25,177 bases of DNA from Rhizaria sp. SCN 62-66 (GCA_001724265.1 MEDY01000164.1:124001-149177), one strand, 5' to 3'. Shown: positions 1 to 25,177, counted from the first letter of the stretch. Notes: generated by a model not told the origin, from the sequence alone. Made by a program: numbers and translations.

Positions 1-91
1 AAATAAAACTAAGAGAATGAAGTTACATCTAAAAGGATAAGGACTCCATCGAAGTCATATAAGTATTCTCTCACTTGAAGTTAAGACGCAC

Positions 92-559: not shown

Positions 560-1308
560 ATTTACAACGCTACGTGAGCAGATGGCATGGCAGCGAGAGA
601 AAGAGATGGAGTGAGCAAGAGAAGGGGCGACGTGAGAATGACGTAAAGGCGAAGGGAAAGAGGCGAGTTCGCTATCATAACAAACCATATGATGCTTATA
701 TTGTTGATATATTCGCTAAAACCTCAAATGTTATGCTATACTTAACAGATTTTATCCAATAAAAGGTCTATAGCATGTGGGAGATAAAAAGCGAAGAGGT
801 TTCGGGAACCCACATGACCCTAATATCCGGACGGCGAAAAAGGCTCGTGCGACATAAACTAAACGTCAACGCCGCCATCATTACTAATACAGGCAGAAAA
901 GTTGCGGTGATATGCATACGTCATTATAAAATCCTAGAATAAGGATCTACTGTCGAGATGCATCTATTTCACGAACGCGCCAGATGCTTACCGAAGAGCA
1001 GGCCCAGTCCTGCCGGCCGAAAAATGGGTGGACCCGAAATGTATTTTCTCGGCCAAAGGAAGCGATATCTCGAGGTGTGAAGCGCGATATCCCATCGTTC
1101 AAACAGTGCCCACGCATCCCACTCTTCTTTTTTTCTATTATCTCACTCCCACTATTATCTTTTTCCCTCTTGACCCGCTCGTGTAGCCCGTTCAAGTCAC
1201 TGCCCCTTGCTGTGACTCAGAGCGACTCCTCTCAGACTCTCCAGTCCCATTCCAACCCAGTCGTCATCTCCTGTCCTCGCACCGCGCGCGCTCACCCAGC
1301 CGCCCCCG
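560..1308. promoter_or_regulatory. Divergent (bidirectional) promoter and 5' UTR region between TAT and PFKFB
   Basis: 749 nt between head-to-head ATGs (559 on -, 1309 on +). AT-richer centre with pyrimidine-rich, leader-like sequence on each sense strand. Confidence 0.65.
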
Positions 1309-4300: not shown

Positions 4301-7300
4301 ACGGTGGGCTGTCTGGCACGGGCACGCGCAGCCACCGCGCAGCGTCCATGCAATTGCCGCCGCGCCCGCGCGCCCACGGACACGCGAACTGCGGCGCTCA
4401 CGGTCACGGTCATGGTTACTGCCTGGCGCATGCGGCCACTGGCGCTGAGGCAGAGGCTCAGGCTCAGGCGCAGCTGCTGAGCGCGAACAACATCCCAGCC
4501 GCTGCGGCTGCGTCTACTGGTGCTGCTGAGCCTGCTGTGACGACTTGCTCTGGCTCTGGCGCCGGTTCCGGGAGTGCAGCCGCGGCGATCGACGCTGGCT
4601 TGAACATGTTTGTGTCGCCGCAGACCTCGCCCTCGGCCCAGCGCAACCCCAACCAACAGCAACAACAACAGCAGCAGATGCAGGTGTCTCGGTCGCCGTC
4701 GGCTCAGCACTCGCCCTCCGCCAACGCTGACGCCGCCGCCGTCGCCGCCGCTGCTGGCGCTGATTCCGGTGCAAACGCAAGCGCGAGCGGCGTCATCGTG
4801 AGCGACGTCACAGGTGTCCGCAAGCCCCCGCTGCAGGTGGCGTACGGCGACGGACCCAGCAGTCTGCTCGGCTCGGCCTCCGCCTTCACCTCAGCCGGCG
4901 TGAACGTAAGTACCCCCTTAGACAGCATGGAGACGCGCGTGGACTCGATCGTGCCCCGCGCGCTTACGCCCGCTGAGGCTGCGCTTTTGACCGAGGCTGC
5001 CGCCGCCGCTGACTCTATCTCCACAGTCCCCGCCAACGCCTCCAACGTTCGCGCTCCTTCGAACATTGCCCCTGAGTCCATTCCAGCGCCTTCTACCGCG
5101 CCTGCGCCTGCGCCTGCTTCGGAGCCCGCCGAGGCGGCGACCGTGCGTGTGTCCGCCGCGGTGGCCGAGGCCCGCGACCCCGTCTCGGCGCCGCACGCGC
5201 TCGACGCCGCCGCGCTCATCTCCGTCTCGGGCTGCGTGGGGCCGGCACGGCTGGATCCTGCGGTGCCGCTGTGCCGGCGCAGCGCGAACCTGGCGTCGCT
5301 GAGTGAGTTCCACACCACGTCGACGTCGGTGTGGGCCGCGAACGAGGACTGGGTGCCTCCCGACTACGCGCTGCCGGGCAAGGTCCGCAATAGCAGCAAC
5401 AACAACCTCAACAATCTCAACAACGTCGCCAATTACCACAACAGCGGCGTGGCGAGCGTCAACACGGCGGCGACGGCGGCGATTGTGGGCGAGAACGGAG
5501 GGCTCGTGACTCCCTTAGGCTCGCCAACAACTGGCGACACCGCTAACTCTAGCAGTAGCAGCAGTCGCATTAACGGCTTGACTGTCATGTCGCCGCAAGC
5601 CACCGCCGCTGCCACTGCCGCCGCTGGCGCTGGCGCTGGCGCTGGCGCGGGTGTTGCGACGCCGTCTGTGAGCGACGTTGCCGCTTACGTGCCTCGCAAC
5701 GACGACGAATTCGATTCCAACTCCAACGCAAAGGCGGTCAACGCGACAAACGCGACCACGTTCTGCCACTCGTGCCATAGTCACCTTCCCAACAGCGGCA
5801 GCGGCAGCGGCGGCGCTTTGTTCGCGGCCGAGCTTCACGCCAGCGCCGACTACATGCAGAACCCGCTTCGCCTGCCTACGATGTCCCCCAAGCCCTCGAC
5901 GGCGACGCTCGCGCCTGGGCTCAACGCCAACAGCATCCTCGGCCCCGGGTACAACCCGCTGGGACAGAGCGTGCAGGGCCGCGAGGGCCGCTCGCGCGCT
6001 GCAAGCACCCACAGCAGCACCCAGAGCCGCCCGCGCACGCCCGCCGCCGCCGCTGCCCACGGTCACTCTGTCAACGCCGGTGAACAAGTGACTGTGCAGG
6101 ACCCCGCCGAGCTGGCCGCCGCCACGGCCGCCGCCGCCGCCGCCGCCGCCGCGGCCGCCGTGGACCCCGTGCTGGCGGCTTCTCTCGCGGCGGCGCAGGC
6201 GCTGGGACTGCCAGCAAGCGCGGCCGACGCGCCCCCGCCGCCGCGGCCGCACGTGCTTGTGATCGCCATGGTCGGTCTGCCTGCGCGCGGCAAGTCGTAC
6301 ATCGCGACGAAGCTGTGGCGCTATCTGCGCTGGCTCCGGTACGACTGCGCGCTCTTCTCCGTCTCGCGCTACCGCCGGGAGGAGCTGGGCTCGGGGCTCC
6401 CGCTGCTGGGCAAGCCCGAGGAGGCGGCCGTGGTGCGCGCAAAGGTGACGAAGCGCGCGCTGGATGGGATGGCGAGCTTCTTCGCGCAGGGCGGCAAGAT
6501 CGGCATTTTCGACGCGAGCAACGTCAACGCACACCGGCGCGATGGCGTGCGCGCGTACCTCAACGCGCTGGGGTTGTCGTACTCGCTGCTGTGGGTCGAG
6601 AGCGTGTGCACCGATGAGGCGCTCATTGAGGCCAACATCATCGACACCAAGCTCTTCTCGCCAGACTACGCGGGGGTCAACGACGCGGAGGCCGTGGCCG
6701 ACTTCAAGGCCCGGATCGCGGAGTACGCACAGCATTACCAGCCGGTCGAGGAGGCCGAGCTGTGGCCCGAGGTCGAGGCCTGCGTGCGCCTGATTGACAC
6801 GGGCCTCCACGTCGAGTGCATCGCCATCAAGGGCTACCTGCTGACCAAGATCGTCTTCTACCTCATGAACCTGCAGGTCTCCAAGTCGCCGATCTTCTTC
6901 TCCCGCCACGGCGAGTCGCGCGCCAACGTCAATAACCAGGTCGGCACGGACGCGCCGCTGTCTGCGGCCGGAGAGGAGTACGCCCGCCGCCTCGCGCCGT
7001 GGCTCATGGCGCAGTCGGAGCTCGCATCTACGGCCACCGAGGCGAAACCGCTCAACATCTACTGCTCGACGCTGCAGCGCACCATCACGACGGCGCAGAC
7101 GGTGTATGATCTGCTGTCGCGCTTCTACCCGTGCCGCGTAGTGCGCTGGCGCGCGCTGGCCGAGATCAGCGCGGGCATCTATGACGGCATGACCTACGAG
7201 GAGATCGCCGAGGCTGACCCCGAGGGCTTCGAAGAACGCAACCGCGACAAGCTCAACTACAAGTACCCGCAGGGCGAGAGTTACAAGGACGTAATCGACC

Positions 7301-7536
7301 GCGTGGAGCGCGTCATCTTCGAGCTGGAGCGCACCGAGGCGCCCGTGATCGTGATCGCGCACCAGGCCGTGATCCGCTGTCTCTATGGCTACTTCATGGA
7401 CTTCGACATCCTGGAGATCCCGCATCTTGAGGTACCGCTGCACAAAGTGATCAAGCTGCTGCCCAGCGCGTACGGCACCCGCGAGGAGGTGATCGACATC
7501 ATGCCGGAGACGCGCGGCAAGAAGAGCAAGCATTAA
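1309..7536 (+). CDS. PFKFB: 6-phosphofructo-2-kinase/fructose-2,6-bisphosphatase with very long low-complexity N-terminal extension (2075 aa, single exon)
   Basis: Uninterrupted ORF. Kinase domain from ~6250 (VIAMVGLPARGKSY, YRR, IFDASN, VES.C.D, SPDY, DF..RI..Y...Y). Histidine-phosphatase domain follows (RHGES, STLQRT, LAEISAG.YDGMTYEEI, YKYPQGESY.D, AHQAVIRC). Confidence 0.95.
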   Translation: MSGAPPRASASTDGRDAAASPASPISPVSSLVSSSSASSSLVASSSAASDLTAGVLVAPVPLPLHHLHPHFNPHSNSNNNAHNSISSSSSSSASASANANASANVSVGGGGGTKPRFAKPALSGRSNSPSTELEIGLSPSIAPHNASSAAATAGAMSPHFIASPHTLTAAAASPGSAAAAAGFPALSLSTLSLATQQQQQQQHLPPHGHHRSSPRVVAQGHSATPNFNTAASAVANAAGVPLPLPRPLPLSAASSASSSALASAAVSAAVSPCVNHYSHSHVGAQSHAHGNSSALSGALFPSSSTLASNNANNTNSASHQSGHGNTGTGGSRAPALLRSSTTSSATALASPSPSSSSASFSSSELVASANNNNSNTTQAGGNCAHCTTSAAPGAKASAHASASASANASPNASARTSAPGVGGVGGPAAAAVVPLCPAAASAAMSHEPFVDLLLPATPSPSHSRLSHHSYASLNNTNAATNAPSASAGGNACRATTLTSAIATNACDQHQQHQQQHGASGVSGGVATAATGDDALCANSAASAVPCSPHPRPLARTHGAAPGICAGPFGLQQQLQQQGGGVTGGNSSGRRSAIGPALVLGRPGSGAPSHNNHHHHSATAHGYSAAAAAGSAAAGPGADTVSSSSPSPATAHSSGVCAGANGSPSPGLVDLVPGTVLSSAGTAKTHSPSFAPHTPTRNEGYQLQIAAAVAAATAAAASAAASGAGDAEAAAAAAAAAAEASPNLFSLAHSYPSGGGHCASPSPSSASAAAAAAAAIAAAAVAQTHTHAHAHAHNGHGHISSNSNSAGGVSLLPLQQAHGHSAASAAHGHGQRPATAGAAPPAAVAAAAVAAAAAVAAAAASGTELGRSHSHGHHVQTRHHLASNAASPAHGHSGATAAAHGHVHCGHCQTEAQAQAQKQELPLPQPPGKVKIAATAGARPADHSDDSDDDDDDDVDNAHAHAGNGGNAAACRCGEADAGASADVDADADVDVDVVGDGHGGLSGTGTRSHRAASMQLPPRPRAHGHANCGAHGHGHGYCLAHAATGAEAEAQAQAQLLSANNIPAAAAASTGAAEPAVTTCSGSGAGSGSAAAAIDAGLNMFVSPQTSPSAQRNPNQQQQQQQQMQVSRSPSAQHSPSANADAAAVAAAAGADSGANASASGVIVSDVTGVRKPPLQVAYGDGPSSLLGSASAFTSAGVNVSTPLDSMETRVDSIVPRALTPAEAALLTEAAAAADSISTVPANASNVRAPSNIAPESIPAPSTAPAPAPASEPAEAATVRVSAAVAEARDPVSAPHALDAAALISVSGCVGPARLDPAVPLCRRSANLASLSEFHTTSTSVWAANEDWVPPDYALPGKVRNSSNNNLNNLNNVANYHNSGVASVNTAATAAIVGENGGLVTPLGSPTTGDTANSSSSSSRINGLTVMSPQATAAATAAAGAGAGAGAGVATPSVSDVAAYVPRNDDEFDSNSNAKAVNATNATTFCHSCHSHLPNSGSGSGGALFAAELHASADYMQNPLRLPTMSPKPSTATLAPGLNANSILGPGYNPLGQSVQGREGRSRAASTHSSTQSRPRTPAAAAAHGHSVNAGEQVTVQDPAELAAATAAAAAAAAAAAVDPVLAASLAAAQALGLPASAADAPPPPRPHVLVIAMVGLPARGKSYIATKLWRYLRWLRYDCALFSVSRYRREELGSGLPLLGKPEEAAVVRAKVTKRALDGMASFFAQGGKIGIFDASNVNAHRRDGVRAYLNALGLSYSLLWVESVCTDEALIEANIIDTKLFSPDYAGVNDAEAVADFKARIAEYAQHYQPVEEAELWPEVEACVRLIDTGLHVECIAIKGYLLTKIVFYLMNLQVSKSPIFFSRHGESRANVNNQVGTDAPLSAAGEEYARRLAPWLMAQSELASTATEAKPLNIYCSTLQRTITTAQTVYDLLSRFYPCRVVRWRALAEISAGIYDGMTYEEIAEADPEGFEERNRDKLNYKYPQGESYKDVIDRVERVIFELERTEAPVIVIAHQAVIRCLYGYFMDFDILEIPHLEVPLHKVIKLLPSAYGTREEVIDIMPETRGKKSKH

Positions 7537-8311: not shown

Positions 8312-8958
8312 TTAGACGTGCTTGTCGATGAAGGCGCGCATGATGATGCCGTGGCCGTCCTTCTCGACGAGCTTGGCGTGCCAGATGAGGAGCGACTCGC
8401 AGACCTTCTTGTCGCCGCCCTCCATGCACTTAAAAACGTACTTCATCACCGTCGCGCGCTCGTCCTCGGAGAGCTCGCCCAGCACGTTGTCGATCGCGCC
8501 CTTGTCGAGCTGCGCGAAGATGGCCGTGATGGCCGCGACGCCGACCTGCTTGACCTCGGCGGACTTGGAAGTGCTGGGGAGCTTGCCGACGGCGAGCTTC
8601 ATGGCCTGCGCCGCCTGGTTGCGCATGATGAGCTGGTTCACCTCGGCCTCGAGCGCCTTCATCTGGGTGAGAGCCTAAAGATATGCGGGGCGCGCGCGGA
8701 AGAAAGAAATAAAAGAATGTGGGAGGTGTGATGTGAAGGTCAAGGTGGTCGAGAGAGAGAGCCAGCAGCAGAGTGAGAGCTGAGAGAGCAAGGGGGGAGG
8801 AGGGTGGCTGATGATAACAAGGAATCTTCTGGGAAAAGGAGCGGAAAGAGGGGATGGAACTAGGAGATTGGAGTATGGGAAGAGTAGGAGAGAAAAACAC
8901 GCACCTCCTCGTCAGAGACGCCAGTGCCCTTAATATCGACCTCCTCTTCGTCAGCCAT
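8312..8958 (-). CDS. ARPC5: Actin-related protein 2/3 complex subunit 5 (p16-Arc), 138 aa
   Basis: Exon 1 8958-8905 (MADEEEVDIKGTGVSDEE), intron 8904-8675 (GTGCGT...TTTAG), exon 2 8674-8312 ending TAA. The C-terminus MKYVFKCME...SLLIWHAKLVEKDGHGIIMRAFIDKHV matches the p16-Arc pattern MKYIYKG...LL.WH.K.....G.G.I.R. Confidence 0.9.
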
Positions 8959-9715: not shown

Positions 9716-12700
9716 ATGAGCGCGTCAGGCTCCGTCATGGTTGCCGTCCGCGTCCGTCCCTTCAACACTCGGTACGTTACTTGACCACTCACCACGAATC
9801 ACGAAACATTCAACAACACGCGACAAAGTTTCACGATAGCTCCTCTTAGCTTTACGCTCACTTCTATCATATGTGTTTGTCTGTGTTTACTATAATTATT
9901 TTTGCTGTCTTAACAGTGAGATCGAGATGGGGGCGAAGCTCTGTGTGCAGATGAACGGCCCGACAACGACCTTAATCAACCCCGAATCCGGCGAAGATAA
10001 GAAGTTTTCCTTCGACTATTCCTACTGGTCGCACGACGGCTTTGACACGAACGAGAACGGCGAGATGGTTGCGCGCGAAGGGACTAACTATGCGACGCAG
10101 CGCATGGTGTTCGACAACCTGGGCCGCGACGTGCTCAACTCGGCCTTCGAGGGCTACAACTCGTGTCTGTTTGCCTATGGACAGACAGGCTCCGGCAAGA
10201 GCTACTCCATGGTCGGCTACGGCAACAACAAGGGCATCATCCCGATTGTCTGCGAGGAGATGTTCAAGTCGATCGAGGCCAACACAGACCCGACGATCAA
10301 GTACCAAGTCGTGGTGTCAATGCTCGAGATCTACAATGAGTGCGTCAAGGACTTGCTGAACCCCAAGGTGAACCCGCCGGGCGGACTCAAGATCCGCTCC
10401 AAGCCGGGTATCGGCGTGTACGTCGACGACCTCACGCCCGTGCCCGTGGCGAGTTACGCCGCGATCGAGGCGCAGATGGAGGCAGGCACACTCAACCGCA
10501 CGGTCGCGTCGACCAAGATGAACGCCACGTCGTCGCGCGCGCACACCGTGTTCACGATCATCTTCACCAAGCACCGCTCGGACATGGGGCTGACTTCGGA
10601 GACGCAGTCGCGCATGAACCTCGTCGACCTCGCAGGGTCCGAGCGCGCGGAGTCCACAGGGGCGACCGGAGATCGGTACGGCAAACTTAGCGATTTACTG
10701 GAACAACAAGTAGTGGCACAGATTGTCGCTGCTTTGAGATATTTTTAAGTCATGTCTTCATATATTTGTCTGGGATGCAAATTGTGCTCATATAACTCAC
10801 TTTATATCTCTTTTTGACTATAATTTGTTCTATTTGTTTCCGCTGCTTTCCGCTCCTTGTCTTAGGTTGAAGGAAGGTTGCGCGATTAACGCTTCGTTGT
10901 CTGCGCTGGGTAACGTCATCTCGGCGCTGGCCGACATCTCCTCCGGCAAGGCCAAGAAGGGCGCCTTCGTTCCCTACCGTAACTCCGCGCTCACACGCCT
11001 GCTGCAAGACGCGCTGGGTGGCAACTCGCGCACTATCATGATCTGCGCGCTGTCGCCGGCCGACGTCAACTTTGACGAGACACTGTCGACGCTGCGGTAC
11101 GCGGACCGCGCGAAGCAGATCAAGAACAAGATCTTCAAGATGGAGAACCCGACGGACGCGCTCATCGCCAAGCTTAAGGCCGACAACGCACGCCTTACGG
11201 CCATGCTCGAGGGCCGCATCCCGCCCTCGCTGAGCGACGGCGCGGGCGAGGACCCGGCCGCGACCAAGCAGCTGGGCGACCTGCAGCAGCGCCTCAAGGA
11301 GGTCGAGGAAGAGAAGATCGCGAATGAGAAGCTGCTGCGCGAGATGCAGCGCTCGTGGGAGGACAAGCTGCGCGACGCCGAGGCCGCGGCAGCCGCGGCG
11401 GCCGAGGCGGCCGCGGCGGGCGGCACGGGCGGCGCCGTGTCGCTGCGCACGGCCAAGGCGACCACGCGGCCCTTCATGGTGAACCTGCATGAAGACCCGC
11501 AGATGACGGAGAAAGTTGTCTACGTGTTCAATGAGGGCGCGACGCGCGTCGGCCGCGCGGACGCAGCCGCGCCGCAGGACGTCGTGCTGTCGGGCCTCAA
11601 CATCAGGGCCGAGCACGCGCTCGTCAACTATGACTCCAACACCAAAGGTATGATCACATTACTGCAAATAACTATCTTGTGTTTCACATATACTCTTGTA
11701 TTCATGCTGAATTTGACAGATATTGGTAAAGTTATATTATTTTATATTGTTCCATAATTTTATCTCACCGTACTTCTATCTTGTGTGTATTTAACGTCAT
11801 TTAGCGCTGACCGTTGCGGTAATCGACCCCGAGACGAAGCTCTTCATCAACGGCACTGCCCTGCGCACCCCGGGCGTGGCACGCCCCTTGGCGCACGGCG
11901 ACCGCCTGCTGCTGGGCAACAACTTCGTGTTCCGCGTCGAGTTCCCCCCGCCGGCCGCGGACTCTGACGCGCCGCCTGTGCTGGTGGATCCCGCGTTCCA
12001 GGGCGCCGGAGCATGGGCTGCGGCCATGGCCGAGTTCCAGGCCGCGCAGGGCCGCGGCGGCGCTGGAGCGGGTGGGGACGGCGACGGCGCCGAGGACGCC
12101 GAGGTGGCGAAGCTGCGGAAGCAACTGGAGGAACTGCAGCGCGAGCGCGATGAAAGCAAGGGTGCCGCGGCGACGGCAGCGGCCGCTGGCGAGATCAAAG
12201 AGATTCAGGAGGCGCTCAAGTGGAAGCGCCGGTCGAAGAAGCTCAAGCAGGACGTAGACGCCATGTCGCCGATGATTCATGAGGCCAACTCGCTAGCTGA
12301 TGAGCTGGGCAAAGAACTTGTGTTTGAGGTCAAGATCGAGGTCGTCCGCAAGGGCCCCCTTAAGGTACGCAATGAAAGCAAAAATATGTCGATCTCATTC
12401 ATATGACTCTTGAGAAAGAAAACTTATCTATATTTAACTATGTTGTGAATAATGGTTTTTAAGGTGAATTACTTTATCTAAGCTTGATTTTTAATCGCTA
12501 ACACTCATCCTTACTCACGCTTTTTTCACTCTCTTTGTAGGCGAACGTGTGCATGCGTCGCCCGTCTAATCGCGAAGTGTGGGTGTGGGACATCGAGACG
12601 TTCGAGTCGCGCCTGTTCCTGATGCGCGAGCTCTTCAACCGCGTGCTGGAGCACGGCCCGCAGACGATTCCGCGCGAGTTGGACCCGTTCTGGGAGCCGA

Positions 12701-14071
12701 CGCAGCCCACGGTCCTGGGCCAGTCGTTCGTGTACCTCAAGGCGCTGGCGCAGCTTGTCGAGGTTGACGGCACGTTCCGCGTCGTCGACGCGCGCGGGCT
12801 GGCGCAGGGCGAGCTCAAGGCCGAGATCGTGCCGCTGGGCTCGCGCGGCGAGGAGCTGCCATACTTGCGGTCTTCTTCTGAACTGCTCGGTATGGCCGTG
12901 ACGTTCGAAGTTAAGACGCCCTTCGTGACCAACGTGCCCGCGACTCACGTCACGGACTTGCAGATGTCGTTCCAGTTCCAGGACAAGGAGTTTTGCTTCC
13001 CTGCCGCCAGTGTTGCGCTCGCGGGCGCAGGCGCCACGGCCACGTTCAACTACACGCAGCGACTCCCTGTCACCGTGGACCAGGTATGTTGAACTTTTAA
13101 TTGAACTTATCGTACATATATCGTCTCATACTAGATCTAACTTATCTTGTATCGTACTAATATCTACTCATTCTACTTGTGTCACTTGTTTTATGTCTCT
13201 GTTGTAGCCTTTCCTGACGTACCTGCTGACGGAGGCGATCACGTTCGTGGTCAAGGGCAAGCCCGCGCGCAGCGACGAGCTGCCCACGGACATGCTCCGC
13301 ATCGCGCTCAAGCGCAGGGCGAAGATCAACTCCGCGCCCACGCTCACTCTCGCACACAGCGCCAACGCCGCCGCCGCCGCCGCGATCGCGTCCGCTGCGC
13401 CCGTCGCCGCCCCCGCGCCCGTCGCGGTCCCTGTTGCCGTCATTACCGCTGCTTTGAGCAACGCCGCCTTGTCCCCCTCGAGCTCGGGCTCCAGCTCCAG
13501 CGCGGGCGCGGGTGCGGTGCCGAGCGCGGGTCTGTGCAGCCAGTGCCAGGAGACTGCGGCGACGCTGTGGTGCACCGAGTGCGCGCGCCGGCTCTGCGCG
13601 ACGTGCTTCCCCGTGCTGCACAAGGCCGCGCGCAGGCGGGATCACTCCGCGCTGCCCCTCGACATCGCCATCGAGTCCCTCTCTACCGCCTCTGGCGCGG
13701 CCTCGGGCTCGGCCTCTGGCGGCAAAGCTGGCGGCAGCGTGCTGTGCAGTAAGTGCGGGGAAAACGCGGCGACGGTGCAGTGCGGCGAGTGCGGCCCGGG
13801 CACGGTGTACTGCGATAATTGCAACGGCATGATGCACAAGGCGCCCAGTCGCCGCGACCACGCGCGCACGCTGCTCCAGTCCCAACCTCAGCCCCAGCAG
13901 CAGCGGCAAACTGCCAATGCAGGCGCCGGGGCCATGTGCGGGCTGTGCAAGGACAACCCGGCGGTGGTGACGTGCGCCGAGTGCGAGGGCGCGGCCTACT
14001 GCGAAACGTGCAACGCGCTGCGGCATAAGGCGCCTAGCCGCCGCGACCACGTGCGTGCGCCGATCGCGTGA
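9716..14071 (+). CDS. Kinesin-3 family motor (KIF28/KLP-6-like) with FHA domain, coiled coils and three C-terminal B-box-type zinc fingers, ~1187 aa
   Basis: Six exons joined in frame by GT-AG introns: 9716-9771, 9917-10675, 10866-11647, 11805-12364, 12541-13083, 13208-14071 (3564 nt). Motor motifs [76 protein letters not shown]-like region VNLHEDPQM...VGR...[14 protein letters not shown]. Kinesin-3 tail motif DPFWEP. Confidence 0.92.
13535..14050 (+). repeat. Three tandem B-box-like zinc-finger repeats in the last kinesin exon
   Basis: Units at 13535-13645, 13745-13861 and 13937-14050, each CxxC-x8-CxxC-x4-6-CxxC-x4-H-KAxxRRD-H. Confidence 0.85.
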
Positions 14072-15092
14072 GAAACGGGCGAACGCTGGATCAATAGGAG
14101 AAATATGTTAAATAATGTGTATATAATGATGAATTGTAGTGATGCGCGAAAGCGGGCGTGGAAACCTGCGGTTATATAGAGTCTTTAGCTTGGGGCGGTT
14201 ACTGCCTGAGAACGACAAATTCGCAATAAAGCACGTTATATTCTTTCTTTTAGGTACAAAACATGCTCATACTCTGAAATAAAATGCTGATAGTGTGCAT
14301 GTAAAATTGTATTGCTTGATATGCAATATATAGATGTATATCAACGCAATTTAGCGTGCAAAAATGCTGCACGCGGTCGAAATCTTTATTATATTTAAAG
14401 AATATAAAATCATCGATCTGCGTAAAATTTTATCAGAAATCTTTGCTGTCCACATCTTAAACAACTTTCCAAACTTCTACTGGCAAATCTCTGTTAGGCT
14501 ATGAGTAACAGAACGCAGACAGCGATGTATTTATTTGAAAATGGCAAGTTAAAACGGACATATTGACTCAAAGAAGACAATTGGGAAACGAACTACAGAG
14601 TTGTTGGAGCTGAGACGGACATTTGAAGGAAAAGTGTTGTAGCCGGCGATAGACTCAGAAATAAGTAACAAAACAAGCCAAAAGAAATAGTTCAAGATAA
14701 GATTTGTCACAAAAGTTACTCAATCATGAATAATATGACCATAAAAAAGCGATATGCATGCTCGAAAACGGAAAATGTCCCCTTCGAGTGACCGTGAGCG
14801 CAACTGGCAAGAGGGTAAGGGGCAGAGCTGTTGGTGCACTCGCGGCCCTCTTTGGAAGCAGTTCTGAGTCCTTTAGACACGTTCCGGCCGACTATTTTCA
14901 TTATGACTGTGCACTTGCACTTAGTTTCTTTATCTTCATTGAACGCAACTGGGAGTTGTGGGGACTGTGGAGCTCCGTTAGTGTTCTTAGCCGAGCAACT
15001 GGTTGCTTCAAAACGACGTCTCTTGGCTATTCTGTTTAGTTGCTTTTGCCGACCAAGAGCGCGCATGCTCGTTCTGTTTTTGTTTGTGCCAT

Positions 15093-15134
15093 TATATATC
15101 AACTTATTTCTGCACATACGACTTTTGCTCATTC
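15093..15134 (+). promoter_or_regulatory. Candidate core promoter (TATA-like and initiator-like) for the uORF-bZIP transcript
   Basis: TATATAT at 15093-15099 and GCTCATTC at 15127-15134, followed by pyrimidine-rich leader-like sequence. Motif resemblance only. Confidence 0.3.
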
Positions 15135-15317
15135 TAATCCATCTTGTTCTGTCGCCGTATTGCACAGAAAGAGCCACTCTTTCTTCGCCTCCACAAGCCT
15201 TCCCACTTCCCCCGCTTCCCGGTTCCCAGCTCTGTATCGACACCCTGTTCGACGCAGAGCGCACAGAACCCCACACCTTTCCGCCCCGCGTCGCGCCGCT
15301 CTCGCCGCGTCTCGTTC

Positions 15318-15542
15318 ATGCGCAAGAGTCACTGCCGCATCTCAATCCCTCTGCTTTTGATCGCCACCCTGCACTTCATCGTTTACTTCTCCGCCGTTAC
15401 CCAGACCAACGCCTGCACCTTCCTTATCCGCGAGTCCGCGAACACCAAGCACCTCTCGTACCACGCCATCAACCCGTACGCCGCTCAGTTCGGCCACGCT
15501 CGCTACCACCACTTCTCGTCGCTCTTTCTCGCACTTCGCTAG
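15318..15542 (+). CDS. 74-aa small ORF, probable peptide-encoding uORF in the bZIP 5' leader (or an independent microprotein gene)
   Basis: ATG...TAG encoding MRKSHCRISIPLLLIATLHFIVYFSAVTQTNACTFLIRESANTKHLSYHAINPYAAQFGHARYHHFSSLFLALR. By hand count 62/74 codons end in G/C; all Arg are CGC, Ile ATC, His CAC, Tyr TAC, Asn AAC. It carries the only ATG between ~15070 and the bZIP ATG at 16078. Confidence 0.7.
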   Translation: MRKSHCRISIPLLLIATLHFIVYFSAVTQTNACTFLIRESANTKHLSYHAINPYAAQFGHARYHHFSSLFLALR

Positions 15543-16077
15543 CTCTAGGCCCGAGGGCGGCTAAGCCACCTCGCCCGCGCGCAGCGCTCTCCCGGACTCC
15601 AACAGCTCGCGACTTCGGCCCTTAAGCGAACACTCGCGCTTTCTCGACACAAACAAGCGCTTTCTTCCGCGACAGGACTTACTTCAGGCTCAGGCGCAGG
15701 TTTCGGCTCCACCGGCACAGGCTTCAGTTCAGGTTCCTCGGACTCAGACTCGGACGCTAACAACAGTAACTTTATCGCTTACACCGCTGCTGCAAACACT
15801 CTTGCTCTCTCTGCGTAAGACTCGTTCCTGTTATTTAGTTTCCCCCAAAGTCTTTGTTCCCACAGTTACCTTCTTGTTTCCTGTTTTCTTCTCCTCAACC
15901 ACCACTCGGTTAAGTGTAAACTCCACGATCAAAAGCAGAGGTTGATACATCCAGTTTGTTCAAACCTTCGCACAAACACCACACCGGTTCTTTTCTTTTC
16001 CCCCGTTTCTTTACTTTCATCGTCTTTTACTTCGTTCGTCGCTTGCACGTTTGCAACACAACAAACACACCACCACG

Positions 16078-18444
16078 ATGGATTTTTTCTCTCCTTTCTC
16101 CTCTGCTGCCGACTCTGTCGCTGCCTCTGCCCACGGCCACGGCCACTTGCACTCCACGACTGGCGTGCTGCCCGTCGGCCACCTCGCCCGCAGCCGCAGC
16201 CACAGCACGGCCGATAACGACAACATCGCCAACCTCAGCACGGGCGACGACAACGCCCTGTCGCTCCTCGCCTTCCCCCCTCTCCAGCTCCAGCCGCTCA
16301 ACCCGCACCACGCCCACGGCCACGACAGCATTCTCGGTCTCGACCATGCTCTCGGCGGCGGCTTGACTTCCAACAACACCAACACCAGCGCCAACAACGC
16401 TAACAGCAACAGCAACAGCAACAGCAACAACAGCGAAGCTGCTTCTGCTCGCTTTGCTAACAACAACATTATGTCACACAACAACGATATCAATGCTAAC
16501 ACCAACAACAACATCAACAACAACTCTACAACTCACGACAACGCATACGGCCACTATCACGCTTCCGTCTCCGCTTCCGCTTCTGCGTCCTCTGTCGCCG
16601 CCGCGCCCGCCGCCGCCGCGTTCCCGCACGCCGCGCTCGCGCTTAACTCCATGGCCAACGCCGCCGCCGCCGCCGCCGCGGCTGCCGCCGCCGTTTCCGC
16701 GTGCTCTGCGCCTGCGACGTCGGTTGTGACGGCGCCCGCGCGCTCCGGCCGCGGCTCCCGCGCCTCGCCCTCCGCCCTGCCCGCCTCGGCCTCGGCCTCC
16801 CACTCGGCCTCGGCCGCCCCCGCCTCTGCGACCTGCGCATCTGTGGTGGTGACGGCAACGGGCCGCCAGGTGCGCCGCGCCGCGCCTACCGACGCCAGCG
16901 ACGGCTACGCCTCCAGCGCCGGCAACGGCAGTGGCAACGGCAACGGCTACGGCAGCAACGGCTCTGCGTCGTCGGTGCAGCACCAGTCGAAGCGCACGCG
17001 CGTCGCCAAGCAGCCCGCGGCCGGCGGCAAGTCCACTGCCTCGGCTTCAATGGCCAACGGCCGCCGCGGCGGTCGCCAGCAGCAACAGCAGCAACAGCAG
17101 CAGCAGCAGCGCGGCAGCGCGAGCTCTGACTCTGATTCGGAGACCGACGGCCTGGCTTCCGTCTACAGCCACGGCCACAGCGGTGGTCGCGGCTACGGCG
17201 CGTACTCAGCTCACGGACACACCTCGTTGCACTACCACGGAAGCCACGGCCACAGCGGCGGCGGCAGCGGCAGCGGCAGCGCGCTCGACGACGATACCCA
17301 CAGCCTGACCGACGGCCGCGACTCGCCCAGCTTCGGGCTCGACGCGGCCGCGGCGGCGCTGCTCGACGGAGACTGCGACGGCGACGGCGGCGACGGCGAC
17401 ACCTTCGACCTGCGCGCGGCCGCCGTCGCGGGCGGCATCGACCCCGCGCTGCTGTCGGCCGAGCAGATCCGGCTCCTGGTTGAGGAGAACTCCCTCAAGA
17501 AGCAGCGTCTCGCGCGCAAGGCCGCCCTCGCGCGCGCGTCGCGGCAGAAGAAGAAGAGCAAGCTCGACGAGCTCGAGGACGAGAACGCGCGGCTCCGCGA
17601 AGAGCTCGCCGCCGCGCGCACCGCGCTGCTGCGCGCTGCCGCGGGGCCGCCCGTCGCCCACCCCGCCTCGGCCGCCGCCGCCGCCGCCGCCGCGCACGCG
17701 CACGCGCACGCGCAGTCCCAGCTTTACCAGCGCCAGCAGCAGCAGTTGCAGCAGCAGCAACAGCACTCGTGGCTGGCGCCCGGGTCCGCCTCGTCGAGCG
17801 CGCCGTCCTCCGTCCCCGGCTCGCCGCTCTCCGTCTCCTCCGGCTCCGGCTCTGTCTCGAACGCTGGCTCGAACGCCAGCGTGAACGCGAATGTGGCGCC
17901 GATGCTGCCCGCGGCCGCCGCCTCGGTCATTGCCGCCGTCGCCAGCGCCAACGCCGTCTCTGGCAGCGCTGCCGGCAGAGTGACCGGAGTGCCGAGCCCG
18001 CTCTCGCTCTCCCGCGCCGGCTCCGACCACGGCGACAACGGCAATGGAAACGGCAACGGCAACGGCAGCAGCAGCAGCACCGCGATCACTACCGCCACCG
18101 CCACCGCCTCCGACGCCGTGGCGCCTGCGCCCGCGACTGCCGCCACCGCCGCTGCCGCCGCTGCCGCCGGCGTCTTCGCTCCCGCGGTGGCTGCGAGTGC
18201 GGCCGACGCCGAGGCTCTGCGCGCGACGCTGGTCCAGATCGCGTCGCTGATGGCGCCCGTCCTGTCGCACCTGCTGCCCGCCGCCGCCGCCGCGTTCCCG
18301 GCTGCCGCCGCCGCCGCCGCCGCCGCTGCCGCCTCGGCCGCCGCGGCGAACGGCAAGGCCGTCGCCGCCCCGCCGTCGCCCGCTGCCACCGCCGCCGTCA
18401 TCATTGCTGCTGCGGCTGGCTCTGACGCGAGCGGGTCGCAGTAA
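16078..18444 (+). CDS. bZIP transcription factor with atypical basic region, embedded in low-complexity sequence (788 aa, single exon)
   Basis: First in-frame ATG 16078, TAA 18442-18444. Basic region and zipper at ~17497-17630: KKQRLARKAALARASRQKKKSKLDELEDENARLREELAAAR (K-x7-R-x9-L-x6-L). Confidence 0.85.
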   Translation: MDFFSPFSSAADSVAASAHGHGHLHSTTGVLPVGHLARSRSHSTADNDNIANLSTGDDNALSLLAFPPLQLQPLNPHHAHGHDSILGLDHALGGGLTSNNTNTSANNANSNSNSNSNNSEAASARFANNNIMSHNNDINANTNNNINNNSTTHDNAYGHYHASVSASASASSVAAAPAAAAFPHAALALNSMANAAAAAAAAAAAVSACSAPATSVVTAPARSGRGSRASPSALPASASASHSASAAPASATCASVVVTATGRQVRRAAPTDASDGYASSAGNGSGNGNGYGSNGSASSVQHQSKRTRVAKQPAAGGKSTASASMANGRRGGRQQQQQQQQQQQRGSASSDSDSETDGLASVYSHGHSGGRGYGAYSAHGHTSLHYHGSHGHSGGGSGSGSALDDDTHSLTDGRDSPSFGLDAAAAALLDGDCDGDGGDGDTFDLRAAAVAGGIDPALLSAEQIRLLVEENSLKKQRLARKAALARASRQKKKSKLDELEDENARLREELAAARTALLRAAAGPPVAHPASAAAAAAAAHAHAHAQSQLYQRQQQQLQQQQQHSWLAPGSASSSAPSSVPGSPLSVSSGSGSVSNAGSNASVNANVAPMLPAAAASVIAAVASANAVSGSAAGRVTGVPSPLSLSRAGSDHGDNGNGNGNGNGSSSSTAITTATATASDAVAPAPATAATAAAAAAAGVFAPAVAASAADAEALRATLVQIASLMAPVLSHLLPAAAAAFPAAAAAAAAAAASAAAANGKAVAAPPSPAATAAVIIAAAAGSDASGSQ

Positions 18445-18490
18445 GCAGCCAGCAGGAGGCGCAGCCGAGCCAGTGCGAGGTCGCAATGCT

Positions 18491-18910
18491 TTGGCCTCGG
18501 TCATGTGTCCGTACTCTGTCGTGTGCATTTGCGAGACTGTGTTGTGTGTTTTCGTGTAAGTTTTTTCGTGTGTGTGTTTCTGGGTGTCCCTGAGGGCGAG
18601 TGTGAGTGTGCGATGAAGTGACCGTGTTGAGAAGACATTATATTAGACTGTCCAGTCCCCGAGTGTGCGAGTTGTGATATAGGGGCCGCCGCACCGTCAG
18701 CACTGCCGCTGACGCTCCCGCTGTCACTGCAATAACTTGCGACACTTGGGACTCGGAGTCTATGTTGGTCTTCTCAAACTCGTAACTCCTGTCGCGCTAT
18801 TCATTCTCTCGCTCTTGTTTGCACTCTCAACGATAAACACATCCGTCACACAACACCACACTCCAATCTCACAGCCACTTGAACCAACTGCACAGGCACA
18901 AGAGAGCCAA
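18491..18910 (+). ncRNA. Long nested RNA hairpin directly 3' of the bZIP stop (structured 3' UTR element or small-RNA precursor)
   Basis: About 15 colinearly nested helices. Examples: GTGTTGTGTG 18539-48/CACACAACAC 18847-56; TTGAGAAGAC 18627-36/GTCTTCTCAA 18768-77; 18654-75/18732-53; apical CGTCAGC 18695-701/GCTGACG 18708-14. Imperfect positions within helices are G.U on the + strand. Confidence 0.65.
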
Positions 18911-20034: not shown

Positions 20035-23000
20035 ATGGCGCACCGGCCCTCGGACCACACCGAGGATTACCAATTCGAGTTTGAGTTCGAAGACAACTCC
20101 CAGCACAGCTCCAGCCGCCAGCGCAGCCCCCACAACGCCGCTGCTGCCGCTCCCGCCCCTGCTATCCCTTCTTCCAGTTCGCTACCCGCAGCCGCATCCG
20201 TTTCCAGCGTCCCGCCCTCGGCCGAGCCTGCGCCCGCGTCCGTGCCCGTTCAGCAGTCCTCCTCCGCGGACGAGCTTGAGTTCGAGGACTTCAACACCTC
20301 CGAGCTGAATGTCCTGAACCCCGCTAAGGTCACCGTCCACGCCCCGTCGTTGCCCCAGCTCGCCCCCGCGAACTCTCAACACCACAACGACAGCGCGCAG
20401 CCCGGCGCGTCCCGGAGCCACTCGCAGCACGGCAACGGCAACGGCTCCGCGCATGCCGCGGATCCCGCTGGAAACACGCCCCCGCTTGGCCGGTCACCAC
20501 GCGCCACAGTCTCATCCGCCTCCCTGACCCCCGAGATCTCGCCCCGCCGCGCCAGCGCCAGCGCCGCCGCCAGCGCCGCCTCGCCCGCCGCTGCCGCCGC
20601 GAACAACGACAGCGGCGCCGCAGCCGTGGTGACGGACGCGACCGCGACGGACGCAAGCAACGCCGGCCTCTCCTCGCTCACCGCGTTTGCGGCCCTGGCA
20701 GCGCCGCCGTCGTCGTCGTCGGGGGGCTCCAGCGGGCTGTCGCTGCCGCCGCTGCCGGAGACGGACCTCATCACCACCAGCTCCACGCGCGCCGCCCGCG
20801 CACAGGGCCCCGGGCCCCACGGCGCGGGGGCGCGCTACACTGGCGGCGGCGGCGCAATTGACGAGGAGGTTGCGGGCGTGTCGTTCGTGTCGTCAACCTC
20901 GAGCTCTTCGTCCGCCGCGCTGTCTGCGCCCACGGCGGCGCTGGCGCCGGTGTCGGCTCCGGCGAGCGTGAACAACAACGCTGTTGCAATCGCTGGTATG
21001 CAACCGCTACAACAACCGCAGCCGCAATCTCAGCAACAGCAGCAACAGCAGCTACAACAGCAGGCCGCTCCTGTTGCCAGCACCAGCAGCAGCAGCAGTC
21101 GCAACGACTTCGCCAACGATGCTAACAGCTTGCCGGCCTCCCGCGGCCGCGATCGCGAGCGTGATCGTGACCGCGCCAGCGATCGCAGTGACCGTGAGCA
21201 GCCGTTTGGCTCCGCCAGCGGCCAGCCAGTCACCCAGGGCCAGGGCCCGGGCATCGGCGGCAGTAGCAGTCTCGGCCACGGTCATGGCCGTGCGCGCGAG
21301 CGCCCCACCCGCGGCGGCAGCAGCGTCGACGTCGACAGCGACTACCAGCAGAGCCCGGTCCAAGCGCACACACAGCTGCAACAGTCTCAACTGCCCTCGC
21401 CACCGCAGCCGCCCGGCCGCAGCCGCAGCCGCGGCGGCCGCAGCAGCAGCAGCAGCAGCGGCGGCGGCGGCGGCAGCAGCGGTGCCGGCCGCGGCGACGC
21501 GTCAGGCGCTCTGACCGCCGCCGTGGGCGTAGGATCGCACCTGCAGGGCGACGTGGGGATCCTGGCGCGCGAGTGTGAGCGGCTGCGGCGCGAGCTCGAC
21601 CGCACCACCAGGCTCAAGGAGGCCGCGGAGGACGACCTGAGGGTCGTCAAGCAGGAACTCGTACGTCAACAACGTTAACAATCGATAGATCAATGATGAA
21701 AAACAATGAGCTTCGAGGAATTTAACTTCTCATTTTGATTTTACACCGCAAATGTATCAAATCAGTTATTTTGGTGATGTTCACTAACTGTACTTTCTTC
21801 TGCGTATTCATCTGTTTTGTTTGTGATCGTTTTGCTTGTAGGAGGCGGCCAAGGCGACCTCGGTGGCGATGTTCGACGACTGGTCCGTGATGCTGGGCCA
21901 GGCGCGGCAGCGCCAACGCGACCTGGAGGCCGCGCCCGTGTCGCCGCAGGTCGTGGAAGACATGCGGCTGAGTCTCATGGAGGAGCTCGAGACGGCCTAC
22001 CAGCACCGGTTCGCCAAGCTCATGGAGGTACGCTCAGTTGCACTTATGGGTTGTTAACGCAACACTTCTCGACAAGAAGCTCACATAGGTCTAAATAAGA
22101 ATTGATTATTGCTCCCTCAGAATTCATCTTGGATCGTATCTTACTTTTTCGTATTTCTGTAACCTATGCCTCTCCCGCGTAGGAAATGAACCGGTTTCGG
22201 ACGCTATACTCCGAGGAGTACGACGCGCACGAGCTGGCGCGCCACGCCGCGTCCCTGGCCGAGAGCCAGCACGCCGCCGCGCTGCGCGACCTCAAGCGCG
22301 CGCACGCCGCGATCCTTGCGCGCAACACCACGCAGCTTGAGGAGCTGCAGAGCGCCGTACGTCTTTCAGCAAAACCGAACTACCGAACAAGCATATCGTT
22401 AAGATGACTTGAAAATAATTGTTCTTGCATTTCTATCTGAAACTCGGAGAACACAACAGATAAGCTTACTTGAGTCCCTTCATCTTATGTTTTTTTTGAA
22501 ACGCATTCTAACTGGTTACACATGTGTAGCTTGAGGCGGCACGCGTGAGTGATCCTGCGCCGGCGCTGCAACAGGCGTTGCGCGAGGTCCGCGCTAAGCT
22601 TTCGGCCTCGGAGCTTCGCTCTGAGCAACTCAGGCACGTCCTTATATCACTAGCTGTTTCAAGATTTCTGTAATCATTGCGTAGAAACACAACATATTTC
22701 TCAATCAACACTCTCAATCAAATGTGTCATTATTTCTCATTACGTCTTTGCTATCTTATCCCTGTACTTTGACATCCGCTCGCACAGCAAGCAACTCTCG
22801 TCCGCCGAGGTGGCGCACGAGGGGGTCAAGGCGGCCTTCCACCGCGACCTCTCGGACGCCCGCGCCTCTCTAGCGCACGAGCAGGCCCGCGCAGCCGCCG
22901 CGGCCGCCAAGGCCGTGCGTCTCTCCTCCGAGCTGGACGCCGCGCAGGCGCTGGCGGCGCGGTGCGAGGACGAGCTGTCGCGAATGCGCTGTGAACACGC

Positions 23001-24171
23001 CCGCGCGCGCGCTGAGGCGCTCAAGGCGACGCAGGACGCCGAGGCCGCCGCCAAGGCCGCAGTGGCGCGCGCCGCCGCGCTCGAGGCGGCGACCGAGGAG
23101 CGCCGCGCGGCGACGGCCTCGCGCGTCGAGACGCTCAGCGCGGACCTCATCCGCGCCAGCGCAGCGCGCGACGCGGCCGAGGAGCGTGCGGCGGCGCTGC
23201 TGCGGGAGCACGCGCTTGCGCTGCAGGCCGCCGAGGAGCGCGGCGTGCGCTCGGCGCTCGCGGAGCAGGCCAAGGCAGCGGCCGCGGCGGGCGAGCTTTC
23301 CGAGCTGCGGCTCCGCGTTGCCGCGCAGGCGCAGGCAGCCGACGCCGAGGCCGCGCGGGCTGCGGCGCGCACGGCCGAACTCGAGGCCGCGCTGCGTGCC
23401 GGAGAGGCCGCGCGCGCAAGCGCGGAGCGGGAGGCCGCGGCGCTGCGCGAGCGCGTGCGCGCGGCGGAGCGCGACGCGTCGGGCGCGGGCGAGGCGGCGC
23501 AGCGGCTCGAGGTCGCGCTGGCCGAGGAGCGCAACGACCCCAAGAGCACGACGAGTGTGCGCGGGGAGCTCGATCGCGTCGTCGCGCGTGCCGAGGCCGC
23601 CGAGCGCGCGGCTGGCGAGGCGCGCGAGAAGGAGAGCATGGCCGCGGCGGCGCTGGCGAGCCTCAAGGCGGCCGCGCGCGGGCAGCAGCGCGAGATGGCC
23701 GGGGAGATCGCGCGGCTCGAAACTGCGCTGGCGGCGGCGCAGACGGCCGCGGCAGAGGCGGGCTCGCAGGCGGGCGCGCGCGCCGACGCGCTGGCGCTGG
23801 GGAAAGAGAAGTACAAGGCGATGGCCGCGGCGGCAGACCAGCGCGCGGGGCAGCTAGACGCGCAGCTGCGGTCCCTCGCGGGGGCGTACAAGACGCAGCA
23901 GCAGCAGCGCGCCGCGCTCGACGCGGAGCTCGCCAGCGCGCGCGTGCGGCTGCAGCACGCGCTCAAGCAGCAGCAGCAGGGCAACCCCGCCGTAGCGGTC
24001 TCCGCTGACGGAGCCGGGAATGCGGAGGAAGAGGACGGCGCTGCCGGCGCTGGCGCTGGCGCAGGTGCTTTGACTGGCGCTGGCGCTGCTGGGTGCAGGA
24101 GTGTTGGCGAGACGAGTGCCGAGCAGCTGCTGCGTCGGAGCGAGGCGAAGCTGCGCTGGGGAATCCCTTGA
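20035..24171 (+). CDS. CEP83: CEP83/CCDC41-like centriolar distal-appendage coiled-coil protein with long disordered N-terminus, ~1157 aa
   Basis: Exons 20035-21660, 21842-22027, 22183-22356, 22530-22633, 22788-24171 join in frame (3474 nt; last intron GC-AG). SPQVVEDMRLSLMEELETAYQHRFAKLMEEMNRFRTLY resembles, from memory, the CEP83 segment [38 protein letters not shown]. The remainder is Ala/Glu/Arg-rich coiled coil. Confidence 0.7.
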
Positions 24172-24521
24172 GCATGCATGCAGGAGACCCGTTTGCTCAT
24201 ATCTCAGTTTATAGTGAGTTATGTGTGAGGTTTTGGCCAACTTGAAGTGTGATTCGTGGCGGAGATTGGCCTGCTGGCGACGATGACCAGCGACTGTGAG
24301 GATAATATGTTCATTGTAATAAATAAAAAACTTGAATTCACGACATACTCCGAAATATGATCCTTTTAGTTTAATTTTAGTTGTTTTTGCGATACTTTTG
24401 TTGGTTTTCTGACCGAGTGATCGAAGTTAAGCCGCCGACCGGTCCAGTCCCAGTCTGATGGCGAGAGGTGAGATGGAAAACTTTGCTGTTTCGATACGGT
24501 CGTTACAAACACATTTCCACA

Positions 24522-25177
24522 ATGTCCGCTCTTGCGCTCAACGTACGTGTTATTTTATATCTACTACAATTATTCGTAATTCGTGTACCGTCGTTTATCT
24601 CTCCCTGTAAACCCTCGCGCATTCGTCTCTGTCCCACGGCTTCTGCGGTGTGCCTAGCTTCTTCCTCACTTTGCTGTTTTCACACACGCCACACCCTTTT
24701 TTTCCAACTGCTTTTGTGCTGTATAGGCTGATGACGTTAAGCTTATGCTTACCGCCCAGGTCCACATCGGTACCAAGAACATGTCCGATGCCATGACCCC
24801 CTACATCTGGCGCCGCAAGCGCGACGGCATCTGCCTCATCAACCTCGGCAAGACCTGGGAGAAGATCGTCCTTGCTGCCCGCGTCATCGTGGCCATCGAG
24901 AACCCCGAGGACGTCCTTGTCGTCTCCGGCCGTGCTCACGGCCAGCGCTCCATCTTCAAGTTCGCTCAGTACACTGGCGCTTCCTACATCTCTGCCCGCT
25001 TCTCCGCTGGTACTCTCACTAACCAGTCGCAGGCCCGCCGCTTCGTCGAGCCCCGCGTCCTGATGGTCACCGACCCCCTCGTCGACCACCAGCCCATCAA
25101 GGAGTCTTCCTACGTCAACATCCCCATCATCGCCCTCTGCGACGCTGATGCCCCCCTCCGCTGCGTCGACATCGCCA
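24522..25177 (+). CDS. RPSA: 40S ribosomal protein SA (uS2), 5' part; runs off the right edge
   Basis: Exon 1 24522-24542 (MSALALN), intron 24543-24726 (GTACGT...ATAG), exon 2 from 24727: [18 protein letters not shown]...[31 protein letters not shown]...GTLTNQ...[30 protein letters not shown]. Not in the supplied ORF track. Confidence 0.97.

Follow-up and report, generated by a model that had tools for sequence, protein, structure and literature searches.

The present analysis concerns a small open reading frame (ORF) on a stretch of 25,177 nucleotides (nt) of DNA from Rhizaria sp. SCN 62-66 (GCA_001724265.1 MEDY01000164.1:124001-149177), which is referred to in its entirety as the window. 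The ORF, at positions 15318-15542 of the plus strand, is probably a genuine translated small-protein ORF, restricted to a narrow lineage, and it lies upstream of a gene for a putative bZIP-like regulator. Its coding signature, the conservation of its peptide with a ratio of nonsynonymous to synonymous substitution rates (dN/dS) below 1, its conserved placement on the same strand as the orthologous gene and 5' of it, its truncation and the geometry of the surrounding ATGs can all be read from the DNA itself. From these features we infer a transcript shared with the regulator gene, leaky scanning, membrane insertion and any function that the peptide may have. According to the reading which we favour, and to which we assign an even chance, the small ORF is the first ORF (ORF1) of a bicistronic messenger RNA (mRNA), or in other terms an upstream ORF (uORF), and the main ORF is reached by leaky scanning. 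An earlier note on this DNA had described a codon-optimised uORF peptide of 74 amino acids (aa) upstream of a bZIP gene. The elements of the locus are as follows.

15100..15317, plus strand: C/T-rich, G-poor tract, the presumed start of a transcribed leader, where the composition switches from AT-rich intergenic DNA
15318..15542, plus strand: 74-codon ORF (ORF1/uORF) from ATG to first TAG, supported by G+C content (GC) by codon position, identity to the metagenome contig L001 and the homologues P0002 and P0003
15318..15461, plus strand: conserved core, codons 1-48, with a basic N-terminus, a hydrophobic helix and a polar motif ending RESANTK, supported by invariant columns and dN/dS
15339..15395, plus strand: hydrophobic segment, residues 8-26, predicted to be of the signal-anchor or signal-peptide type (Kyte-Doolittle)
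15540..15548, plus strand: double in-frame stop TAG CTC TAG (codons 75 and 77), where P0002 and P0003 read on
15549..15818, plus strand: remnant tail, related by homology to those of P0002 and P0003, with the frame open for 89 codons to the TAA at 15816-15818
15819..16077, plus strand: G-poor, pyrimidine-rich spacer up to the main ATG, free of ATG, with a G fraction of 0.13 as compared to 0.22-0.23 in two intergenic tracts
16078..18444, plus strand: 788-aa ORF of low complexity with one conserved basic/coiled-coil bZIP-like block and an orthologue in the relative's contig L002
17434..17577, plus strand: conserved basic-region block, nearly identical between the window and L002

The coding signature of the small ORF is reproducible. 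As the earlier note had counted, G or C occupies the third position in 62 of the 74 sense codons (48 with C and 14 with G, against 10 with T and 2 with A), and the synonymous choices are uniform or nearly so, with CGC for five of five arginines, ATC for six of six isoleucines, CAC for seven of seven histidines, TAC for four of four tyrosines, AAC for three of three asparagines and TTC for five of six phenylalanines. GC at the first, second and third codon positions (GC1, GC2 and GC3) amounts to 0.50/0.42/0.84. The flanks lack this contrast, the same phases giving 0.59/0.62/0.68 in the 168 nt on its 5' side and 0.58/0.64/0.57 in the 258 nt past its stop. The periodicity sets in at about 15300 in sliding windows, and the excess of GC3 over GC1 and GC2 combined (GC1+2) is gone by about codon 70 when followed in windows of 12 codons. 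The two strands of the window contain 51 ORFs that start with ATG and run for 50-130 codons; ranked by GC3 minus GC1+2, the ORF stands fourth among them, and the three placed above it all overlap known coding exons, namely the p16-Arc exon, the p16-Arc antisense frame and a frame antisense to a kinesin exon. Furthermore, the codon log-likelihood of the ORF's own frame exceeds that of both other frames in the window and also in L002, where codons 1-71 of the homologous ORF have position-wise GC values of 0.42/0.34/0.80. A GC3 so far above that of the flanking non-coding DNA would be difficult to account for unless selection was linked to this frame.

The claim that the ORF is codon-optimised in the manner of the highly expressed RPSA gene did not hold, since identical preferences are found in all four other coding regions tested, with GC3 values of 0.85 for uS2/RPSA, 0.87 for the downstream ORF, 0.84 for the 6-phosphofructo-2-kinase gene (PFK2) and 0.96 for p16-Arc. 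As the bias is common to every tested coding region, it marks a sequence as coding and not as highly expressed. The lesson for annotation is that a frame-specific GC3 contrast reliably flags a small gene in this genome, of which prokaryote-style gene callers record only a nameless ORF. The independent metagenome contig L001 (1325 nt) matches the window at 14547-15871 with 0 mismatches, and the exact 74-aa product has been recorded from seven contigs; the sequence of the ORF is therefore no accident of assembly.

An exhaustive, length-unrestricted phmmer search against 1.84 billion representatives (threshold E <= 0.001) returned three matches, the query itself, P0002 (155 aa, E 2.8e-18) and P0003 (146 aa, E 7.2e-17). 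P0002 has been recorded from a single contig of 5.5 kb. A word-based search found the query alone, and a profile search recovered P0002 and P0003 and no further homologue. Pattern scans gave 25 matches in genome contigs and 115 in viral contigs, none of them confirmed, and led to no further locus, while the metagenome scan returned L001, which is identical in sequence to the window, and L002 (2492 nt), which is the locus of P0003. No family similarity was seen for any of the three peptides in Pfam at E <= 10, and a profile search of the PDB with the peptides gave no lead. In the ESM Atlas, there was no usable feature match, structural template-modelling (TM) scores did not exceed 0.40, and the Atlas model of P0003 has a predicted local distance difference test (pLDDT) value of 0.46. 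Judged by these searches, the peptide is a three-member orphan family.

The conservation within this family is concentrated in the N-terminal part, with 33 of the 37 columns that are invariant across the three homologues falling in residues 1-48. Over these codons, the window and L002 share 78% nucleotide identity, with 10/8/14 differences at the three codon positions, and conservation begins at the ATG, the 60 nt on its 5' side being 30% identical to L002. Nei-Gojobori estimates for codons 1-48 are dN 0.19 and dS 0.54, corresponding to an omega of 0.36 (Fisher P 0.017). Both tests of conservation proposed in the earlier note were thus borne out: in a relative that is well diverged, at the one locus L002, a homologue precedes the orthologue of the downstream gene, and dN/dS is below 1 over the conserved core. 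The hydrophobic stretch described there is likewise real, with a Kyte-Doolittle 19-residue mean of 2.01 at residues 8-26; this mean lies between 2.01 and 2.31 in all three homologues, which also have in common a net charge of +3 in residues 1-7. Residues 49-74 are not conserved in the 20 codons that align to L002, an alignment which is uncertain, and they keep the codon bias in both species. The selected part of the peptide would accordingly comprise the first 48 or so residues, that is, a positive N-terminus, a helix at residues 8-26 that may serve as signal anchor or signal peptide, and a short polar motif. An N-terminal module that is kept, next to a C-terminus and a stop that vary, is the pattern that would be expected of a functional small membrane or secreted protein.

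The length of the product differs between the homologues (74 aa in the window, 155 aa in P0002 and 146 aa in P0003), and with it the stop position and the C-terminus. The tail of the window's frame past the double TAG aligns with the L002 tail over 72 codons at 31% amino-acid identity and has short motifs in common with it, and between P0002 and P0003 there are 29 invariant tail positions among the 75 tail residues of P0003. In the window this tail has no GC3 contrast (0.60/0.65/0.55). On the simplest reading of these sequences, the ancestral ORF had about 150 codons, and the double TAG arose in the lineage of the window; a product of roughly 150 aa, its tail rich in Ser, Ala and Asp and under loose constraint, would thereby have become the form of 74 aa. 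It was also observed that the codon bias of L002 is lost near the codon which matches the window's stops, though the L002 frame stays open. Read-through or reassignment of TAG was considered and set aside as unsupported, the four other ORF ends that were checked being TAA or TGA and the long ORFs being open under the standard code; to our knowledge, neither TAG is followed by a recognised read-through context.

The variable end of the peptide bears directly on the possibility of ribosome stalling. The earlier note had suggested a stalling sensor near the TAG, which finds no support in view of the absence of conservation in residues 49-74 and of stops that differ at 74, 146 and 155 aa; a C-terminus and stop position so variable make termination-coupled stalling at a fixed site unlikely. 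A broader version of this idea is that of a cis-regulatory conserved-peptide uORF (CPuORF), in which the nascent peptide would control translation of the regulator, by engaging the signal recognition particle (SRP) and the endoplasmic reticulum (ER) or by stalling, and the released peptide would be functionless. The same variability speaks against such a role, as do the length of 74-155 codons, compared to about 6 to about 40 codons in characterised stalling uORFs, and the lack of paired or homologously placed hairpins of the IRE1 type (see below). In its favour, the peptide is conserved in the leaders of orthologous regulator genes, plant CPuORFs are reported to occur preferentially with transcription-factor genes (PMC2075485), and a class IIa of CPuORFs, of which only the N-terminal or middle part is conserved, is recognised (PMC9305500). 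Taken together, we consider purely cis-acting control by a functionless peptide to be improbable.

The relation of the small ORF to the downstream gene is the second subject of the argument. As previously described, its stop TAG (15540-15542) is followed 535 nt later by the downstream ATG at 16078, which is out of frame (760 mod 3 = 1), and no ATG intervenes in any frame from 15318 to 16078. In L002, the homologous ORF spans 148-588 and the downstream orthologue starts at 720 on the same strand, 131 nt after the ORF end, as compared to same-strand stop-to-next-ATG distances of 1247 and 1590 nt elsewhere in the window. The ORF1 ATG is the first in the C/T-rich tract in both species, the stretch 15065-15318 of the window being without ATG, and no frame has another ATG before the main one. 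From ATG to ATG, the distance is 760 nt in the window, where this gap is the third longest on the plus strand, and 572 nt in L002, where it is the longest, leaving ATG-free interiors of 757 and 569 nt. The start contexts also agree between the two species, with T at -3 and C at +4 of the ORF1 ATG, and A at -3 and G at +4 of the main ATG.

Composition points in the same direction. GC skew changes from +0.10 (14900-15049) to -0.47 (15100-15249) and stays negative through 16349. Past the stops at 14071 and 18444, GC falls to 0.29-0.47 and the skew turns positive within 100-200 nt, in flanks that are GT- or AT-rich, whereas past 15542 GC stays at 0.58-0.64 and the negative skew is unbroken up to and beyond the main ATG. 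Composition and spacing thus favour, indirectly, a single transcription unit for both ORFs.

Three further lines of argument about the start codons were tried and abandoned. Depletion of ATG was dropped as proof of scanning, given that it is not significant under a Markov null. The absence of internal methionine from the three peptides is not significant either, since the methionine content of the window's proteins is 0.9% (35/3937 residues) and 0.65-1.4 residues are expected per peptide. An N-terminal extension from a non-AUG codon was rejected on account of an in-frame TAG 16 codons upstream of the L002 ATG and of the upstream sequence, which is not conserved.

Several observations weigh against a shared mRNA with leaky scanning. 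The linkage was read at one relative locus, L002, from DNA, so that the conserved adjacency could be plain synteny. For a bicistronic locus, the window's spacer of 535 nt is long; its final 260 nt, with a GC of 0.43-0.45, are comparatively rich in AT and could hence contain a promoter of their own. The ATG-free interval has P of about 0.33 per species under a first-order Markov null; about 3% of all 757-nt windows on the plus strand are free of ATG, compared to 0% on the minus strand. The designation of start contexts as weak or strong follows the general rule of a purine at -3 and G at +4, which may not be the organism's own consensus. The L002 tail does not have the codon bias of the N-terminal part (0.72/0.63/0.61), which is odd if all 146 codons are translated equally. 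Finally, the RNA evidence consists of four runs available as contigs, without starts, ends or strand, none of which shows both ORFs on one RNA.

These points leave room for an independent small gene with its own promoter and poly(A) site, next to a regulator gene that is transcribed separately, the adjacency being ordinary synteny. The 400 nt on the 5' side of the ORF do resemble an ordinary leader, GC in successive bins of 100 nt being 0.47/0.41/0.50/0.68 as compared to 0.44/0.52/0.48/0.66 for PFK2. The long spacer with its AT-rich end and the conservation of an N-terminal module instead of the stop region, which is the pattern of a functional protein, would also suit a gene of this kind. It accounts less well for the 131 nt from stop to ATG in L002, against 1247 and 1590 nt between tandem genes of the window, for the missing GT- or AT-rich 3' flank and the unbroken negative skew past the ORF, and for a path to the main ATG that is free of ATG in both species. 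A separate gene is a possible, if rather doubtful, explanation of the locus.

The public runs in which DNA of the window occurs are activated-sludge and wastewater libraries, present as contigs. In X1, a poly(A) metatranscriptome, exact contigs lie on the downstream ORF and its 3' flank; among the pieces listed, none falls on 15318-15542, and at a contig depth of 3-6 this is uninformative either way. X2, labelled as cDNA and flagged as probably DNA, has exact contigs at 15259-15486, 15735-15885 and 15975-16214, and a contig of X4, of a kind that is not stated, bridges 15531-16367.

The same contigs address the proposition that the ORF is a spliced 5' exon or alternative first exon of the downstream ORF, or that it is untranslated and conserved at the DNA or RNA level. 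The organism does have introns, such as the AT-rich GTATGT...TAG intron of the kinesin gene, and the extended frame ends in GCGTAA in both species, with a donor-like GTAAG in the window. However, the contigs 15735-15885 (X2) and 15531-16367 (X4) and L001 run across the candidate donor without a break in colinearity, no credible splice joint within 15100-16100 was found in the run contigs, and no conserved GT marks the end of the codon-biased part. The sole joint inside that interval, 15755>16785, was seen in one contig with a side of 21 nt and GC..GC ends and was rejected as a low-complexity artefact. The length-unrestricted HMMER search found no fused or longer homologue. Against the untranslated version, the frame-specific GC3 contrast and the omega of 0.36 argue for translation. 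Altogether, an exonic or untranslated origin appears very improbable.

As to the end of the extended frame itself, GCGTAA gives rise to GTAAG in the window (15813-15820) and to GTAAC in L002 (583-590), the former resembling a splice donor. The GTAAG at 15816 was rejected as donor of an intron in a 5' untranslated region (UTR), the contigs being colinear and the GTAAC of L002 lacking plausible acceptor spacing.

The downstream ORF encodes the second conserved element of the locus. Its basic block of about 48 residues is, besides the ORF1 core, the sole strongly conserved element, and outside of it the protein is poorly conserved, 203 of 541 aligned residues being identical to the L002 orthologue. 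By eye, the block begins with a basic stretch, after which hydrophobic residues recur at heptad spacing. In our own alignment, the register of which is provisional, a lysine is found at the position where canonical bZIPs carry an invariant asparagine. Pfam gave nothing for the whole downstream protein at E <= 0.01, and for the block alone the matches remained below threshold, namely bZIP_1 with E 0.14 and 12.8 bits against a cut-off of 27.6 (L002) and bZIP_2 with E 0.89 and 10.1 bits against a cut-off of 22.3 (window). A profile of the two block sequences matched CREB chains in the PDB at E 0.7, and a search with the basic block had no scoring match among the 8000 candidates taken in, which is uninformative. 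By these tests, the product is bZIP-like at most, and the label bZIP given to it in the earlier note is not justified.

[quoted passage not shown] A scan for such hairpins (stem of at least 5 bp) found one in 15100-18700 and three in L002, none of them paired or homologously placed. The comparison is relevant to a further idea, in which the upstream ORF would be an ER-tethering device: its signal-anchor helix, once translated, would draw the ribosome together with its mRNA to the ER via SRP, scanning or reinitiation to the regulator ORF would then depend on the status of the translocon or the ER, and the logic of XBP1u/bZIP60u would be realised by a separate upstream ORF, with the forms of 146-155 aa as differently tuned variants. 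In XBP1u/bZIP60u, the hydrophobic region directs the ribosome and its mRNA to the ER, with a stall about 50 aa past the start of this region (PMC11077094). The likeness lies in a hydrophobic segment that is translated from the putative mRNA of a bZIP-like regulator. In the window, 67 residues separate the start of the helix from the stop, as compared to the approximately 50 aa reported there (PMC11077094), and 48 residues separate its end from the stop, so that the segment would be out of the exit tunnel by termination. Unlike here, the segment of XBP1u/bZIP60u lies in the frame of the factor and is removed by IRE1 splicing, and the present locus has a separate upstream ORF and no paired hairpins. 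A narrow literature search yielded no upstream ORF that tethers a regulator mRNA to the ER and no protist case of such an arrangement. Tethering is the most speculative of these ideas, and we attach only a very slim probability to it.

To return to leaky scanning, the proposed course of events would be as follows. The small ORF would come first on an mRNA shared with the downstream bZIP-like regulator. Some ribosomes would initiate at its poor-context ATG and produce the membrane peptide, and the remaining ones would scan through 760 ATG-free nt to the second ATG with its A at -3 and G at +4. By this split of ribosomes between the two ATGs, ORF1 would both give a trans-acting microprotein and cap the translation of the regulator. 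Reinitiation past an ORF of 74-146 codons is expected to be inefficient, which makes leaky scanning the most economical route to the second ORF.

TOM22 and OST4 are small membrane proteins, and both belong to gene pairs of a kind that resembles the proposed arrangement. They are among the endogenous bicistronic loci reported from green algae (PMC11291117). At such loci, described for Chlamydomonas and Auxenochlorella and with leaky scanning tested by mutation, ORF1 is short and has a weak Kozak-like context, ATGs are depleted before ORF2, and the spacer is short (PMC11291117). The present ORF1, with 225 nt in the window and 441 nt in L002, compares to a reported median of 291 nt in Auxenochlorella, and the L002 spacer of 131 nt to reported medians of 183 and 40 nt (PMC11291117). 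Furthermore, by the general start-context rule the first ATG context is poor and the second good, and no ATG lies between the starts. The differences are the window spacer of 535 nt, an ORF1 product that belongs to no known family, and a polycistrony that is putative here, as against one proven by long-read transcripts. Green-algal genomes also seem unlike that of the source organism, with its long intronless ORFs and AT-rich intergenic DNA.

Further likenesses exist to the membrane microproteins encoded by animal uORFs, such as the upstream product of SLC35A4 and STREMI, in which an upstream ORF of about 100 codons gives a single-pass product and a larger protein is encoded on the same mRNA. 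There is no homology between these and the present peptide. The animal products have protein-level evidence, whereas the peptide described here is known from sequence alone, and the downstream product is a putative DNA-binding regulator and not a transporter. With plant CPuORFs, for example those upstream of S1-group bZIP genes, the locus has in common a peptide that is conserved 5' of orthologous regulator genes with dN/dS below 1 (PMC2075485, PMC4960570), and class IIa as it is defined (conserved in the N-terminal or middle part) would fit (PMC9305500). It differs from plant CPuORFs in its 74-155 codons, in its hydrophobic helix and in having no Pfam similarity, and from those of class I, which are conserved at the C-terminus and stall at termination, in its variable C-terminus and stop.

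Conserved-peptide uORFs, bicistronic loci and uORF-encoded membrane microproteins are therefore known already, and what is new is the orphan peptide family. If both ORFs do reside on one mRNA, the locus would be a clear case of a long upstream ORF that is selected at the peptide level and coupled to a regulator gene. Its setting would be an uncultured eukaryote, beyond the plants, algae, fungi and animals in which such loci have been studied, and it would add an orphan family of membrane microproteins with three known members. The forms of 74 aa and 146-155 aa would then offer a natural comparison that could show how the second ORF's translation is adjusted by ORF1 length and by the distance from the ORF1 stop to the main ATG.

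The remainder of the window contains several other genes. A 2075-aa intronless ORF on the plus strand (1309-7536) ends in about 430 residues of a 6-phosphofructo-2-kinase/fructose-2,6-bisphosphatase (Pfam 6PF2K E 1.7e-51, His_Phos_1 E 3.2e-37), which are preceded by about 1600 low-complexity residues rich in Ala, Ser, His and Gln. Near the other end of the window, at 22654-24203, a 505-codon plus-strand frame (Ala/Glu/Arg-rich and coiled-coil-like), for which Pfam gave nothing, overlaps a 487-codon minus-strand frame in DNA with a GC of 0.77-0.82. A PDB search with the uS2 fragment gave 83 matches at E <= 1e-30, whose top scores are too much alike to place the organism. Three further coding regions were recognised by similarity.

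74-715, minus strand: class I/II aminotransferase fragment (E 4.7e-07)
8315-8674, minus strand: ARP2/3 p16-Arc (E 2.8e-22)
24727-25176, plus strand: ribosomal protein uS2/RPSA (E 4.5e-21; best PDB match E 7e-56)

Upstream of the small ORF, 9927-14071 on the plus strand apparently represents one intron-containing gene, in which a kinesin motor (Pfam E 2.7e-63) and a KIF1B domain (12553-13089) are followed at the C-terminus by three B-box/ANCHR-like zinc fingers (13292-14068), an unusual combination of domains; its AT-rich GTATGT...TAG intron lies at about 13093-13215. In the AT-rich region between this gene and the small ORF, a 209-nt contig of X1 matches exactly at 14644-14852 and may derive from an extended 3'UTR, an RNA that lacks annotation or carry-over of DNA into the library.

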